Source: Clostridia bacterium
Lineage (GTDB): Bacteria > Bacillota > Clostridia > Oscillospirales > CAG-272
Assembly: GCA_017531925.1 (NCBI GenBank)
Contig: JAFXKD010000005.1
Span: 10,817 to 74,816, forward strand
Length of the DNA: 64,000 nt
Direction: 5' to 3'
Part shown: positions 31,221-35,484 of the stretch, piece by piece
Position numbering within the stretch: the stretch's first letter is position 1
How the letters are laid out: each line of letters starts with the position of its first letter
Notes under the pieces: generated by a model
Database searches by the model: none
What the model was told of the DNA's origin: nothing
The model's input: only the letters and a program-made list of their open reading frames with translations
Program-made: the position numbers and the translations under genes

Positions 31221-31422
31221 TAAATTGCTCCTTTCAAATGGTATATATATAGTAAATTATTAACTTAATTTGCATTATTTTGCATTTTAACAATATATTA
31301 TATCATAAAAATGAGGCTTTGTCTATATTTTTTATTATAATGAACTTTATTAATTTTCAACAAAAATAAATAGTAATAATTATCATTATTACATAAAATT
31401 TGGTTTTTTATTAACGAAGTAT

Positions 31423-31450
31423 TGACATTTAATGACTTTTTTGATATAAT
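31423..31450 (+). promoter_or_regulatory. Sigma-A type promoter with extended -10 for the small lipoprotein gene
   Basis: TTGACA (31423-31428), a 16-nt spacer, then TGATATAAT (31442-31450). Confidence 0.55.
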
Positions 31451-31511: not shown

Positions 31512-31895
31512 ATGAAAAAGACAATTAAACTCGTTGCAGTAGTAATGGTTATTGCTATGCTCGCTCTTTCACTCGTTGCTTGCGGAAAGTCCCTTAGCGG
31601 CAAATACACCGCAGAGGCAAACTGGGGTCTCGGTCAGACAACCTACACATACGACTTTACAATGGGTGGCAAGGTTACAAGAACAACAACTACAGATACT
31701 CTCTTTGGCGATCCTGAAACAAAGACTGCTGAAGGTAAGTACGAGATAATGGAAGACAATGAAAACCCCGATAAGTATGTTATCGCATTTGAGTTCCCCG
31801 AGGAAGACAGAGTTACTTATTCCTACTCCGAGGGTAACATTGACGGTGAAAAGGTTATCATCATCAACGGCACAACATTTACAAAGGTAAAATAA
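31512..31895 (+). CDS. Small lipoprotein of unknown function
   Basis: AAGGAGA SD. Signal peptide with lipobox SLVAC. Confidence 0.75.
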   Translation: MKKTIKLVAVVMVIAMLALSLVACGKSLSGKYTAEANWGLGQTTYTYDFTMGGKVTRTTTTDTLFGDPETKTAEGKYEIMEDNENPDKYVIAFEFPEEDRVTYSYSEGNIDGEKVIIINGTTFTKVK

Positions 31896-31905
31896 TTCAA
31901 TTATT

Positions 31906-31940
31906 AAAAATCCGAGAGGCAATTGCCTCTCGGTTTTTTT
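31906..31940. terminator. Strong bidirectional terminator shared by the lipoprotein gene and the metY-metA-TIR-membrane protein transcription unit
   Basis: ccgagaggc / gcctctcgg is a perfect 9-bp stem with aatt loop. It is flanked by AAAAAT and TTTTTTT. Confidence 0.85.
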
Positions 31941-34116
31941 ATTGCTTTTCAATTATTTCGTATCCGTTTGAGGTGAGGAGCCAGTATGCGTCGTCAAGTA
32001 TCTGATAATCGTATTTGATAACGTCCGTATCGAGCATACTCACTCCGTCGCGCTCTGCTACCATCCTTGCAAATTCCTCAAGTCCCTCAAACGTTGTGAT
32101 ATTTCCGTGTCTGCGAACGGAGTACATCTTTCCGTTCGTATATCTCTTTTTGTCATCGGTGCGCTCATTAAGTATCTGATCCTTAGTGGACGGCACCATT
32201 CCCTTGCTGAGCATAAAGGAGTTCCATCTGTGATGCTCAAGCACCGCCATATTTCTTCTGCGCGATATTGGGAAATCCAATGAATAACGCGCAACGGGCT
32301 TGCCCGTAATGCTGCAATCCTCAAAGCTCGGCATATCACCCGCTCCGTAAAGGGAAAGGTATTGCTCCCTTGTGAGAGGCTTTACTCCCTGTATTCCCTT
32401 TTCGCAGTAATCAAGCCCCATAAGGTGAAGCTTGGAGCGAAGGCTCAGGCAACAATAAATATTTGATTCCCTTTCGAGCAGGGATTTTTTTACGTACCAA
32501 TTCTTATCCGATGCTTTCTTGCATCCTTCAACGAAGGCTGCATCGATATTTGCGCCCTTTGAATGACTTATCTCATATTCAAGATCGTATATCTCGTTTC
32601 TCTTGCGAGCCATATCGGATATTTTGTCGTTAACTATTTTATCTATATTATAGACGACCTCTTTTTCGTTTCCAATAAATATGCAGCTCTCTGCATCAAG
32701 CGGTATCTGCTTATCCGTGTGATCGCTTGCCTTTACGAATACCGTAAGAGCGCCTTCATCCCATTCCTTGCTCTTCCCGGATAGCTTTGCGGCAATATCG
32801 ATATTTTCAAGATCGTCTCTTACAGCAACCACGGCAATATTCACCGCGTTCCTGCTTGATCTCAACGTCTCTCTTACCGCACTGTAAAAATCGGGCGAGT
32901 TATAATCAAGACAATAGTATCTCTCAATTGCGGGCGCGCTTGGAAGCGGCAGATATTCTGAGCTGTCGGCATTTATAAATTCATTTTCAAATCTGTAATA
33001 GCCGTGATTGAGCATCTTGCTCATTTTAGGATCTTCCTTATCAAAAATGTGATAAGTGATCTGCTTTGGCTCAGGTCTCTCAGACGTTCCGCAGAGCAGC
33101 TGATTATTTGCAATAGAGGTAAGGAAGATCTGCCTGTTTGTCCTTCCAAAGCCTACAAGGAACACGTTGATATCAACGTCATCATTTACAAGAGAGGTTG
33201 AATGATCGACCTGCTCCTTCGTCAAGAAGCGGCTTATCGGATATTTATCAACAAAGTCTATTGCCACCATTCTGTGCTTGCTGAGATAGTGCATACATCC
33301 GTAGCCCCTTTTTATAATATCCTCGTATATGCTTTCGTATTCCGTGTCACCGAAAGCGTAAATATCAAGACGGGAGAAAAGCTCCTCGCGCTGTGCGTCG
33401 TTCAGTGCTGCAAGCTCACACGCAAAGCTATTGCAGATCGCAATATTTTTATCGTCATCACCGGTATTTATCACCGCAATTCCGCTGCACTTCTTCTTAA
33501 GGACATCCTTAATAAGCTTTGCGGCAAATTTTTCGGGTGCGGACGTGGGGGCGTATCTGATATTGTTTAGATACAGCTCCTCTCTTTGCTTGCTGCCAAT
33601 ATCGTCCACGAGAATTTTAAAGCGTTTTTTATCGCTATTATAGATATTTACGCTCTGTCCGTTTGCTCCGAAAATATAGAGCTTATCCTTTTTGGTGACG
33701 TTTCCGATAAATCTCTGATATCTCTCCCAAAGATGCTGGTTGAATATCGATACCGCAAACATAAAGGCGTTTACGGTCACCACTATAAAGCAGAGATAGA
33801 CCGTTAATCGGAAAAGGTAGCTATCGTTCATAAGAAGCTTTATTCCGTCAGTTTCGTATTCGAGAGTCACAAGTGCTTTGATCTCGTTTACCGTGCTGAA
33901 GAACGCTTCTAAAATACCCTCGCCCACATAGGTATGCGCTACGTAATAGAGCGGAAAGGCGGTCGCGTAAATTATTGCAAACTTACCCTTTTTAAAGCCC
34001 CTTATGAAGGATATTCTGTCACCTCTGCCGGAAAAGGCAATTGCTGCGACGGATGCAGCTATCTCCAATATGATCAGTATAAGGCACGCAAGCGTTACTG
34101 CATTTACTAACAGCAT
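31939..34116 (-). CDS. 725-aa membrane protein: three N-terminal TM helices, two Rossmann-like (KTN/TrkA-N-like) modules, and two C-terminal RyR-like repeats
   Basis: ATG at 34116 follows GGAGGAAG. Hydrophobic helices at about aa 4-27, 44-62 and 100-125. Beta-alpha-beta starts KLYIFGANGQSV (aa 145) and INVFLVGFGRTNRQ (aa 316). W540..LERESN..LRSKLHLMGL and LEHHRWNSFMLSKGM...RRHGNITTFEGLEEF resemble bacterial RyR-domain motifs as I remember them. Confidence 0.85.
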   Translation of the reverse strand: MLLVNAVTLACLILIILEIAASVAAIAFSGRGDRISFIRGFKKGKFAIIYATAFPLYYVAHTYVGEGILEAFFSTVNEIKALVTLEYETDGIKLLMNDSYLFRLTVYLCFIVVTVNAFMFAVSIFNQHLWERYQRFIGNVTKKDKLYIFGANGQSVNIYNSDKKRFKILVDDIGSKQREELYLNNIRYAPTSAPEKFAAKLIKDVLKKKCSGIAVINTGDDDKNIAICNSFACELAALNDAQREELFSRLDIYAFGDTEYESIYEDIIKRGYGCMHYLSKHRMVAIDFVDKYPISRFLTKEQVDHSTSLVNDDVDINVFLVGFGRTNRQIFLTSIANNQLLCGTSERPEPKQITYHIFDKEDPKMSKMLNHGYYRFENEFINADSSEYLPLPSAPAIERYYCLDYNSPDFYSAVRETLRSSRNAVNIAVVAVRDDLENIDIAAKLSGKSKEWDEGALTVFVKASDHTDKQIPLDAESCIFIGNEKEVVYNIDKIVNDKISDMARKRNEIYDLEYEISHSKGANIDAAFVEGCKKASDKNWYVKKSLLERESNIYCCLSLRSKLHLMGLDYCEKGIQGVKPLTREQYLSLYGAGDMPSFEDCSITGKPVARYSLDFPISRRRNMAVLEHHRWNSFMLSKGMVPSTKDQILNERTDDKKRYTNGKMYSVRRHGNITTFEGLEEFARMVAERDGVSMLDTDVIKYDYQILDDAYWLLTSNGYEIIEKQ

Positions 34117-34128
34117 AAGACTTCCTCC

Positions 34129-35484
34129 CTATTTCTTTTGCGCTATTCCGACGAAATCTATCTCGCAATACCAGAAATTATCCTCTGAAAACTTATTTTC
34201 AAGACATTCGAGAGCATAATCCATAAGCTCAAGATTATTTCTGCTCTCCATATTGTGAGGATTTCTGTCATATATCTGCTTAAGATAATTTCTCCTGTAA
34301 GCAAATCTCTCCTCAAAGATATCCGCTCTCTCATCTATGTTAAGGCCGGATATCTCCTTTATGTAGTTCATCATTTTTACATTTTTATATCCCGAGCCGA
34401 GAAGCTGGGAGTATATCTTTCGTCCGTTAAAGCGGTCGGATATTCCCTCGGTCGAGGTATGAAGATCTATTATCTTCTGAACGAGTCCGTCATCGTTTAC
34501 GGCAATCGTAGAGCCGTCATCCGAGCCGCGGATGATTATATATCCGTCACGGGAGAGGAATTTTCTTATCCTCTTCAAGAACTTATTGGGGTTCGTCAGG
34601 TGGTGGATAACAAGGGACGCAAAGATTATATCGAAGCACTCGATATCGTACTTTTCCATCAGCGCGGTAAGATTATCCTCGAGGTTTTCGTCCTCAAGGT
34701 TCAGCTGCTCGTATGCAAAGTTTTCAGGGCAGTTCTTTTCCCTTGCGTATTCAAGGCATTTTTCGTTAAAATCGACGCCAAGAACGAACGAATCGGGGAT
34801 ATTCTCAAATCTGTCCTTAGTTACATAGCCGTATGCACATCCCGCGTCAAGGATCTTGATATTATCCTTTTTGATCCTTTCAAGCACGTATTCGATAGCG
34901 GGCATATCCGCAGCTCTCGTATTCTGTGACTGAATCTTAAGTCGCGTAAACTCCCTGCCGTAATTTGCCTTATAGGTCGAAGCGGTCTTGCCTGTCGATA
35001 AGGACCTTTTATACGTACGCTCCTCGCTGTGCGCGCTGTTGTTTTTCAAACAGTTTGCGGCAAACTGCGTTACCGTGCTTACGGGGGTGGAATTGTAGTC
35101 AAATATCTCGTATCCGCGAAGACTTCTCGGTACCTCGGACGAAGTGCTGTTCACGATATAAGGAATGATGCAGGCATTTTTCTTTCTGCCCGAAAGTATG
35201 TCATCGTGGAAGGATTCCCTTTCATAGCTCAGCCATTCGGTATCAAGATATGCAAGGTCGCTTGCGATGATTATAAGAACTCTCGCCTCGTCAAGTGCCT
35301 GCTCAATGGATCTCTTGTACGTTGCCGCGCCAAGCTCAAGAAGCTTAACGTTGCTGTAAAAGGCAGAGATTCCCATCCTATTGAACTCCGAATACATCTG
35401 CTCCGCAACGCGGACATCCTCAGTCTGATTGCCGTCAAATCCGGAATTTTTGAAAGATATGAACACGTCGAAATGATTATCCAT
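34129..35484 (-). CDS. TIR domain - class I SAM-dependent methyltransferase fusion protein (451 aa)
   Basis: TIR region: DVFISF at aa 6, GISAFYS, ARVLIIIASD, and W84-LSY-E88 at the catalytic Glu position. MTase region: motif I ILDAGCAYG (aa 211-219), VLGVDFN, FDIIFASLVIHHL, LSRDGYIIIRG. ATG at 35484 follows GGAGG. Confidence 0.85.
   Translation of the reverse strand: MDNHFDVFISFKNSGFDGNQTEDVRVAEQMYSEFNRMGISAFYSNVKLLELGAATYKRSIEQALDEARVLIIIASDLAYLDTEWLSYERESFHDDILSGRKKNACIIPYIVNSTSSEVPRSLRGYEIFDYNSTPVSTVTQFAANCLKNNSAHSEERTYKRSLSTGKTASTYKANYGREFTRLKIQSQNTRAADMPAIEYVLERIKKDNIKILDAGCAYGYVTKDRFENIPDSFVLGVDFNEKCLEYAREKNCPENFAYEQLNLEDENLEDNLTALMEKYDIECFDIIFASLVIHHLTNPNKFLKRIRKFLSRDGYIIIRGSDDGSTIAVNDDGLVQKIIDLHTSTEGISDRFNGRKIYSQLLGSGYKNVKMMNYIKEISGLNIDERADIFEERFAYRRNYLKQIYDRNPHNMESRNNLELMDYALECLENKFSEDNFWYCEIDFVGIAQKK

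Follow-up and report, generated by a model that had tools for sequence, protein, structure and literature searches.

A membrane protein family of gut Clostridia with predicted tandem RCK modules and a ryanodine-receptor-like repeat domain: a plausible signal-gated effector of bacterial immunity

Background

The window analysed here is a stretch of 64,000 nucleotides (nt) from a Clostridia bacterium (assembly GCA_017531925.1, contig JAFXKD010000005.1, positions 10,817 to 74,816 of the forward strand), and all positions below are counted from its first letter. Directly downstream of a TIR gene it carries an open reading frame (ORF), which we call c0, for a protein of 725 amino acids (aa) that matches no annotated family. 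The locus thus raises two questions: what kind of protein is c0, and does it take part in TIR signalling? The original prediction, made from the letters alone, was of a membrane anchor, two degenerate Rossmann modules and paired ryanodine receptor (RyR)-like repeats. We found that this architecture is borne out at the level of predicted structure, and profile homology to a paralogue, c1, agrees with it. The reading of c0 that we find most reasonable is that of a sensor or effector that binds nucleotides. It may plausibly be a new membrane effector of bacterial immunity, gated by a signal, and we put the probability that it is a membrane channel or effector gated by a nucleotide of the ADP-ribose (ADPR) family at roughly 40%.

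The gene and its family

The gene was defined from the ORF list and its translation, full-length homologues and an AlphaFold2 model:

31939..34116, minus strand: c0, an ORF of 725 aa with an ATG start

The original prediction had left the strand unstated, and every peptide that it quoted is present in the translation: KLYIFGANGQSVNIY...FKILVDD at aa 145-172, INVFLVGFGRTNRQIFL at aa 316-332, LEHHRWNSFMLSKGM at aa 626-640 and RRHGNITTFEGLEEF at aa 668-682, together with W540, ERESN and SKLHLMGL.

Full-length relatives of the protein, about 730 aa long and 45-50% identical, are numerous, and none is annotated. A first homologue search gave 266 clusters of full-length homologues, and when 1.84 billion cluster representatives (50% identity) were searched exhaustively, 632 passed a threshold of E<=1e-3 and 258 one of E<=1e-30. 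With one genome taken per species, c0 is present in 167 of 185,579 species genomes. Nearly all of its hosts are Clostridia of the gut or rumen that have not been cultured (Christensenellales, Oscillospiraceae, Acutalibacteraceae, Coproplasma), alongside a few metagenome-assembled genomes (MAGs) labelled 'Bacilli', and the region of the window is also found in goat, sheep and other gut metagenomes. One homologue, P0118 (1147 aa), joins iron-alcohol-dehydrogenase-type domains (PF00465, PF13685, PF25137) to the c0 body, in a fusion that may be genuine or a product of gene calling.

Conservation was judged on alignments of 74 and 108 sequences and is centred on the second of two C-terminal segments. 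The columns that never vary among the 108 sequences are P293, E627, H628, R630, W631, G639, P642, H670, G678, L679 and Y702, and the near-invariant ones include G150, G322-F323-G324, D359 and W540. The motif residues that had been picked by eye (G322/F323/G324, E627, H628, R630, W631, H670, G678, L679) are among these few columns. Because the homologues are full-length, the motif residues are invariant and the predicted folds are those that had been guessed, the observation goes beyond chance.

Identification by sequence failed at every level. Searches with the c0 protein against Pfam (at E up to 10), NCBIfam, PADLOC and the sequences of the PDB gave zero matches; 49 homologues scanned singly against Pfam (E<=1) gave no RyR and no TrkA_N match; and family profiles of 49 or 74 sequences found nothing credible in the PDB, and no RyR entry. 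In particular, the two Pfam families named for comparison in the original prediction, PF02254 and PF02026, have no match in the c0 family even at E<=10. Marginal matches to radixin (E 0.31) and MrpB (E 0.024) were taken as chance.

Predicted architecture

With the family alignment as input, AlphaFold2 modelled the whole protein with high scores (mean predicted local distance difference test (pLDDT) 93.7, predicted TM-score 0.90). The model has three parts, the second of which is a pair of modules:

33697..34116, minus strand: membrane module, aa 1-140 (hydropathy, AlphaFold2 secondary structure, charge distribution)
33217..33696, minus strand: Rossmann/RCK-like module 1, aa 141-300 (AlphaFold2 beta-alpha-beta, Foldseek, hhalign duplication)
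32668..33189, minus strand: Rossmann/RCK-like module 2, aa 310-483 (AlphaFold2, Foldseek, alignment, hhalign duplication)
31942..32667, minus strand: paired RyR-repeat (Repeat12-like) domain, aa 484-725, 242 aa (separate AlphaFold2 model, Foldseek)

The best fold match of the whole model among PDB entries (Foldseek) is the TrkA gating ring 4j9v (E 4.2e-6, 434 columns), followed by the GsuK channel and RCK pair 4gx0/4gx1/4gx5 (E 2e-5 to 7e-4) and further by TrkH-TrkA, MthK and human Slo1. The two modules are internally duplicated (hhalign E 4.6e-6), and both contain the KTN-type motif 'tGdDxxN', as INTGDDxxN in module 1 and (A/V)xxDLENID in module 2. Their glycine loops had been described as GxGxxG-like and degenerate, the second reading GFGRTN, and this is what we found: module 1 reads IFGANGQS (GxNxxS), of which G150 alone is conserved, and module 2 reads G322-F-G324-R-T-N (GxGxxN), with a conserved acidic residue, D359, at the end of strand 2. 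At the position of the module 2 loop, paralogue c1 has GLGxYG, the canonical GxGxxG. Together, the model and the duplication argue for two consecutive RCK-fold modules in c0.

In the membrane module AlphaFold2 places helices at aa 2-28, 31-43, 46-63, 68-83 and 93-98 and a 41-residue helix at 100-140. The hydrophobic helices that had been proposed at about aa 4-27, 44-62 and 100-125 are largely recovered: Kyte-Doolittle hydropathy supports the first and last (1-32 and 100-127), the model supports all three (2-28, 46-63, 100-140), and the middle one is the weaker by hydropathy. Six basic residues lie in the loop at 29-45 and four acidic residues in the loop at 84-99, a charge distribution from which we infer an N-out, C-in topology with three transmembrane helices and one short helix, 68-83, that does not cross the membrane. 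The arrangement of helix 68-83 resembles the layout of a pore loop, though without a K+ filter motif; the loop that follows it reads TLEYETDG in c0 and LVVLK(Y/F)D in the family consensus, with no conserved glycines. Six residues of the module (K42, G44, P55, L56, L95, N116) are nearly invariant in the 108-sequence alignment. In the model, helix 100-140 passes directly from the membrane into Rossmann/RCK module 1.

A domain of paired ryanodine receptor repeats

Modelled alone, the C-terminal domain is mostly helical (pLDDT 92.4), and its top 44 PDB fold matches are all Repeat12 (R12) or R34 tandem repeats of ryanodine receptors, with no competing fold. First among them, at E 8.9e-4 and probability 0.99, is 9l9b_B, the R12 domain of human RyR3 in complex with dantrolene and ADP, whose 258 aligned columns take in both repeats; 3NRT, a Bacteroides protein with a single repeat, ranks further down. 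Relative to R12, c0 has insertions in a beta-hairpin region (aa 568-610) and a loop (aa 645-667). The two repeats are as follows:

32371..32646, minus strand: RyR-like repeat 1, aa ~491-582, degenerate (alignment columns)
31969..32283, minus strand: RyR-like repeat 2, aa ~612-716, with an intact ligand motif (74- and 108-sequence alignments)

The motif of repeat 2 is E627-H628-x-R630-W631 ... G639 ... H670-G-N-(I/L)-T-T-F-x-G678-L679, and conserved acidic residues (D698, D703, D708) lie downstream of it. Between repeat 1 and repeat 2 there is no detectable sequence similarity; therefore it is the fold that supports their pairing.

An independent line of evidence comes from paralogue c1. The c0 and c1 profiles align over aa 47-679, the RyR segment included (hhalign 99.7%, E 4.9e-27), and 11 of 16 c1 members match the Pfam RyR family PF02026, the best at E 1.4e-6. 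In this alignment EH-RWN...G...RRHGN(L/I)TTF-GL of c0 lies over EYEH-RWN...EG...KTH-L-PY--L of c1. The same columns in a second neighbour family, c10, read EEHVRW...GWKYG...IHK-IVPY--L; a direct comparison of the c0 and c10 profiles aligns the right motif, although the score is weak and not significant alone (E 0.021, probability 2%). By this chain of profiles the homology of the c0 domain is traceable through c1 to bona fide RyR domains. What stands of the paired RyR-like repeats as first proposed is thus their fold and their transitive homology; a PF02026 sequence match was not found, and the site is intact in one repeat only.

The original prediction also held that bacterial RyR-domain proteins are essentially uncharacterised. 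This is outdated, as two 2026 preprints show that phage RyR/R12 proteins bind or cleave 2'- and 3'-cyclic ADPR (cADPR) made by TIR proteins (PMC13232231; 10.64898/2026.06.04.730250). Phage RyDEP is a cADPR glycosidase of the R12 fold with ligand residues H75, W78 and H100, and other phage homologues bind 2'/3'-cADPR signals with nanomolar affinity and do not cleave them (PMC13232231). RyR Tad, a sponge for glyco-cyclic ADPR (gcADPR), binds 1''-3' gcADPR (dissociation constant 43 nM), 1''-2' gcADPR and cADPR through H129/W132, K147/H154 and K170/D171 (10.64898/2026.06.04.730250). By motif alignment, H628/W631/H670 of c0 correspond to the three RyDEP residues and to H129/W132/H154 of RyR Tad.

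Genomic neighbourhoods

We took 80 non-redundant c0 loci together with flanks of up to 8 kb on either side, called and clustered their ORFs, and searched for TIR neighbours with a TIR profile built from the c0 loci. Among 88 distinct neighbours contiguous with c0 on the same strand, the family that a Pfam scan finds most often is TIR_2, with 7 members, and every other family has at most 2. A TIR gene occurs within 8 kb of c0 in 14 of the 80 loci (17%). In six loci (that of the window and L001, L046, L063, L070 and L076) the TIR gene is the immediate same-strand neighbour of c0, some 0-100 nt away. The neighbouring TIR proteins are of several architectures.

Three other kinds of same-strand neighbour recur. 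The first is c1, which stands beside c0 in 16 loci, usually immediately upstream, and suggests that the two proteins form a heteromeric pair (L005:4113-5963 and L007:4511-6445 are examples, and there are 14 other loci). The second is c10, beside c0 in 7 loci (for example L001:3712-5967, L005:8203-10533 and L018:5613-7946), a protein of ~750-790 aa that combines an HD-like motif of phosphohydrolases (HRDHYSHS...FHDIGYP) with a bona fide RyR domain, which matches RyR2 at E 1.8e-12; the module at the C terminus of c10, AGTGHR...GAD...WDG...NRGGT, looks like a candidate SLOG-like module. Genes of this family adjoin c0 and TIR or TIR-NACHT genes. For example, locus L005 has the order c1-c0-c10 followed by two TIR-NACHT proteins, in a mobile-element-like region, and L001 reads c10-c0-TIR-methyltransferase-DHQS_2nd-TIR-TIR/HD. 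The array directly downstream of c10-c0 in L001 (8228-14193) and L042 encodes a TIR protein of 400 aa, a methyltransferase of 261 aa, a DHQS_2nd-like protein of 180 aa, a TIR protein of 450 aa and a ThsB_TIR-HD protein of 991 aa; here TIR and methyltransferase are separate genes, in contrast to the fusion in the window. The third kind is a ~680-aa AAA ATPase (PF00004 with AAA_lid_6) followed by two paralogous proteins of ~159 aa, c11, beside c0 or c1 in about 10 loci (L020:10388-13416, L027, L048, L062 and L085 among them). The c11 proteins have no Pfam match, and the idea that they are cryptic TIR domains was rejected (hhalign probability 0.4%).

The locus in the window

The TIR partner named in the original prediction is real. 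It is a fusion of a TIR domain with an S-adenosylmethionine (SAM)-dependent methyltransferase and lies immediately upstream of c0:

34129..35484, minus strand: TIR-SAM-methyltransferase fusion, 451 aa, upstream of c0 (Pfam)
34117..34128, minus strand: 12-nt spacer GGAGGAAGTCTT with Shine-Dalgarno GGAGG, between the TIR-methyltransferase stop codon and the c0 ATG
31912..31933, both strands: bidirectional terminator-like G+C-rich hairpin CCGAGAGGCAATTGCCTCTCGG, with T runs on both strands, 5 nt past the c0 stop codon
31934..34129, minus strand: cassette of 2.2 kb, c0 with its ribosome-binding site, absent from a relative (blastn, junction sequences)

The TIR domain occupies aa ~7-131 of the fusion (TIR_2, 30.8 bits against a cutoff of 28) and the class I SAM methyltransferase aa ~195-370 (Methyltransf_31, 65.8 bits, 4.4e-18); in PADLOC only the methyltransferase model mad2 matches. 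Among 26 homologues, W84 and E88 (WLSYE) are at least 90% conserved and the SAM motif D213/G215/G219 is conserved too, and by motif resemblance E88 is a candidate for the catalytic glutamate of the TIR domain. The fusion belongs to a family of at least 320 clusters of ~450 aa at 54-87% identity. At one of its other loci, L096, the TIR-methyltransferase gene adjoins a GmrSD-type nuclease.

No terminator-like site was found in the 12-nt gap between the TIR-methyltransferase gene and c0, so that co-transcription of the two genes, with a common terminator, is likely on the sequence. Contigs from three metagenomes cross the junction between the genes in DNA, and a search for RNA evidence of co-transcription found the region in DNA gut-metagenome runs only.

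The c0 gene is a single-gene cassette inserted between the TIR gene and that gene's own terminator. Sequences L097-L099, from a relative, match the window from 37773 to 34130 and then from 31933 to 31718, with about 20 nt between the two matches (blastn). In this relative, the homologous hairpin directly follows the TIR-methyltransferase gene.

The outer flanks of the locus are housekeeping genes: homoserine O-succinyltransferase and a Cys/Met pyridoxal-phosphate enzyme on one side, and a SufC-like ABC ATPase, SufD, phosphofructokinase and a radical-SAM enzyme on the other. On the plus strand at 31422-31450, in a stretch of low GC content (0.33), there is a perfect match to an extended sigma-70-type promoter (TTGACA, 17 nt, TG-TATAAT). 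Downstream of it, an ORF of 127 aa without a family match (31512-31895, plus strand) converges on the hairpin terminator of c0, and this ORF is kept in the relative without c0.

A proposed mechanism

From these elements we infer a channel activity, an oligomeric state, a ligand and an immune role for c0. Three membrane helices and the short non-spanning helix would sit in the membrane, the last membrane helix would lead into the tandem RCK modules, and the protein would form, by analogy with GsuK, a tetramer with an eight-RCK ring; a tetramer is expected because the TrkA and GsuK gating rings have the same tandem-RCK arrangement. The R12-like C-terminal domain would be the receptor for a ligand derived from an adenine nucleotide, the likeliest being a TIR-type signal derived from ADP-ribose (2'cADPR, 3'cADPR, cADPR or a modified relative). 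Binding at H628-x-x-W631...H670 would be passed to the RCK ring and from there to the membrane module, and the resulting ion flux or membrane depolarisation would stop the growth of the infected cell. At the locus in the window, the TIR-methyltransferase on the same transcript may supply the signal in cis, and in genomes with a stand-alone c0 the protein may respond to a signal made in trans. A supporting precedent is the validated Thoeris type X, which uses a predicted ion-channel effector (10.64898/2025.12.03.692087).

A bolder version of this mechanism, which we regard as unlikely, is that the c0 family is a bacterial cation channel gated by cADPR isomers, with R12 as receptor and the tandem RCK modules as transducer; it would then be the prokaryotic counterpart and a possible evolutionary source of the link between cADPR and RyR in animals, and the TIR-methyltransferase would make a new, methylated ADPR-derived signal. 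The link between cADPR and the ryanodine receptor in animals is itself disputed.

Weighing the alternatives

Several of our results weigh against a signal-gated immune effector. The TM-scores of the R12 matches are modest (0.35-0.45), which we attribute to the insertions at aa 568-610 and 645-667, and in repeat 1 the H/W pair is lost, with N507 and Y510 in the places of H628 and W631. No K+ selectivity filter of the T-x-G-(Y/F)-G (TVGYG) type is present in c0 or in the family alignments. No defence-system model in PADLOC-DB v2 matches c0, and tblastn searches of 50,697 phage and 72,556 plasmid records found no c0 homologue. TIR genes are absent within 8 kb in 66 of the 80 loci, and 46 of the 80 have no recurrent partner of any kind. 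In several Christensenellaceae-type MAGs (L003, L004, L006, L016, L023, L033, L034), c0 stands alone at one conserved site, in the order rpsU, a 135-aa gene, c0, rpsT, mraZ, with no TIR or RyR partner within 8 kb. Conversely, the TIR-methyltransferase gene stood alone among housekeeping genes, with c0 absent, in 4 of 4 sampled loci (L093-L096), and the relative in L097-L099, with a TIR-methyltransferase 85% identical and DNA 79% identical to that of the window, lacks c0 at the same site. Finally, RyR R12 domains also bind ATP and ADP, and the ligand of c0 could be an ordinary adenine nucleotide.

The original prediction had itself seen a danger in homologues that sit mostly as housekeeping genes with no TIR partners, and this doubt proved half justified: most loci have no TIR gene within 8 kb, yet TIR is the most enriched neighbour. 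Because TIR is the single most enriched family while most loci lack it, we regard the link as real but facultative. In other words, a functional partnership of c0 with TIR proteins has statistical support only, and as an obligate rule it is contradicted. An obligate two-gene system of TIR-methyltransferase and c0 was rejected, as the TIR-methyltransferase is mostly stand-alone and a syntenic relative lacks c0.

The strongest competitor, which we hold to be possible without favouring it, is that c0 is a physiological, non-immune cation channel (probably for K+) or transport regulator of gut Clostridia. Its RCK ring and R12-like domain would sense ATP, ADP or NAD and match ion flux to the energy state of the cell, and the TIR neighbours would be accessory genes gathering at insertion-tolerant sites. 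RCK/KTN rings classically gate K+ transport and bind ATP, ADP and NAD, and the top fold matches of c0 are TrkA with ATP-gamma-S and GsuK with ADP/NAD. Animal R12 entries in the PDB contain ATP or ADP (RyR3 among them) and dantrolene in the equivalent pocket; since ATP/ADP is held in the same pocket there, the fold alone leaves the ligand unfixed. The many loci with housekeeping flanks and no TIR or other partner, the rpsU...rpsT synteny kept across several Christensenellaceae species, and the 45-50% full-length identity retained across families all fit such a role. However, a physiological channel would not be expected to have so patchy a distribution among species genomes or to come and go as a single cassette between close relatives. 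Nor does it account for the strong enrichment of TIR, TIR-NACHT and further RyR-domain proteins as immediate same-strand neighbours, or for the position of c0 in a mobile-element-like region in L005. The missing K+ filter and the degenerate GxGxxG loops of both Rossmann modules speak against it as well.

It is also conceivable, though we think it very improbable, that c0 is not a channel and that its helices merely anchor a cytoplasmic RCK/R12 sensor, which would regulate another transporter or enzyme, as TrkA does TrkH, or act with the AAA ATPase and the c11 proteins. TrkA and KtrA are regulators and not pores, c0 has no recognisable pore signature, and the recurrence of the AAA ATPase (PF00004 with AAA_lid_6) with two c11 proteins in ~10 loci and of adjacent c1-c0 pairs in 16 could be read in this way. 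Against it, helix 100-140 is continuous from the membrane into the first RCK module, as in RCK-gated channels, the membrane module is well conserved (the six near-invariant residues given above), and no transporter gene recurs among the neighbours of c0.

We give equally little credence to a role in which the RyR-like domain degrades or sequesters cADPR-type molecules, as RyDEP and RyR Tad do, so that c0 would be a membrane-tethered damper or reset switch of host TIR signalling or an anti-defence factor belonging to a mobile element. In its favour, the RyR-domain proteins from outside animals that have been characterised by experiment are all either a cADPR glycosidase or sponges, the c0 family conserves H-x-x-W and H, one of D698, D703 and D708 could be the acid of a His/Asp dyad, and c0 is cassette-like. 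On the other side, a membrane and tandem-RCK module of 480 aa is superfluous for a sponge or hydrolase, the phage, plasmid and viral-structure searches found no homologue, and the place of c0 downstream of the TIR gene in the same operon is more that of an effector than of an antagonist. Searched with Foldseek against the viral structure library BFVD, the c0 model had no match below E 0.03; with this result and that of tblastn, a phage or plasmid anti-defence gene was dropped as a candidate.

Significance

The phage-protein work of 2026 established the RyR repeat domain as a pocket for cyclic ADP-ribose signals made by TIR proteins, and in the literature we found no description of a host-side protein that uses an RyR domain as a receptor. 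In the c0 family such a domain is joined to a membrane protein whose gating ring is of the channel type. If c0 is gated by a signal, it is a new effector class in TIR immunity, and a small, tractable bacterial model for how nucleotide binding by R12 leads to channel gating, which bears on the old question of a direct action of cADPR on ryanodine receptors; the TIR-methyltransferase fusion would then be a possible source of an undescribed signal. If c0 is instead an ordinary nucleotide-regulated cation channel, the analysis nonetheless provides an annotation for more than 600 sequence clusters, a family at present nameless and without domain assignment.

Comparison with known systems

Like GsuK, c0 has two tandem RCK modules per chain directly after the last membrane helix. 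It differs from GsuK, MthK and TrkA in having no Pfam TrkA_N match (E<=10), degenerate glycine motifs and no TVGYG-type filter, and in its extra N-terminal helix and C-terminal RyR-repeat domain. We know of no characterised RCK channel that carries an RyR-repeat domain. Compared with RyR Repeat12 (PF02026, including 3NRT of Bacteroides thetaiotaomicron), the whole 242-aa C-terminal domain of c0 superposes on the two-repeat R12, and its repeat 2 keeps H-x-x-W ... G ... H-x-x-L-x-x-(F/Y)-x-x-L. The differences are the lack of a PF02026 match, the loss of the H/W pair in repeat 1, the insertions, and an RCK ring in place of a giant Ca2+ release channel. With RyDEP and RyR Tad the c0 domain shares the fold, the types of ligand residue (His, Trp, His) and a neighbourhood of TIR signalling. 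However, RyDEP and RyR Tad are small soluble homodimers that antagonise Thoeris, whereas c0 is a 725-aa membrane protein of the host chromosome with both repeats in one chain.

In function, the nearest analogues of c0 are those Thoeris systems whose effectors are membrane proteins: type II ThsC (Macro-TM), type V ThsF (DUF2270), type VII ThsH (SLATT) and type X ThsK ('ion channel'). These follow the same logic, in which a TIR gene stands beside a membrane protein with a cytoplasmic nucleotide-binding module, and loci with several TIR genes also exist for c0 (for example L001). The effector family is a different one, the linkage to TIR is facultative (17% of loci), and the TIR domain in the window is fused to a SAM methyltransferase. 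A survey of Thoeris lists 29 putative effector types, among which the validated type X is a predicted ion channel whose signal is not known (10.64898/2025.12.03.692087). The survey's text and the tables available to us do not mention RyR, RCK, TrkA or methyltransferase (10.64898/2025.12.03.692087).

We rejected the identity of c0 with type X ThsK. The presumed ThsK was identified as the neighbour of a ThsB that shares 99% identity with the validated ThsB domain of Bacillus sp. BH32. It has 229 aa (222 aa in a second locus), and BLASTP shows no similarity between it and c0 (best E 0.8). The plasmid matches of the type X TIR protein are type II (Macro) systems and are uninformative for this comparison. 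The presumed ThsK genes (L091:3298-3987 and L092:3319-3987) have no Pfam match, and their surroundings, with Replic_Relax and FtsK_SpoIIIE, resemble an integrative element; an OLD-family nuclease/UvrD pair adjoins the gene of the second locus.

The nearest relative in architecture is paralogue c1, also unannotated, which has the same full-length arrangement of membrane module, two Rossmann modules and RyR domain. It is shorter than c0 (about 620-800 aa), keeps GLGxYG, has H..W in both repeats and lacks the insertion at aa 568-610. Although it belongs to no described family, c0 thus joins three known kinds of protein: the RCK-regulated membrane proteins, the R12 nucleotide receptors and the TIR-associated effectors.

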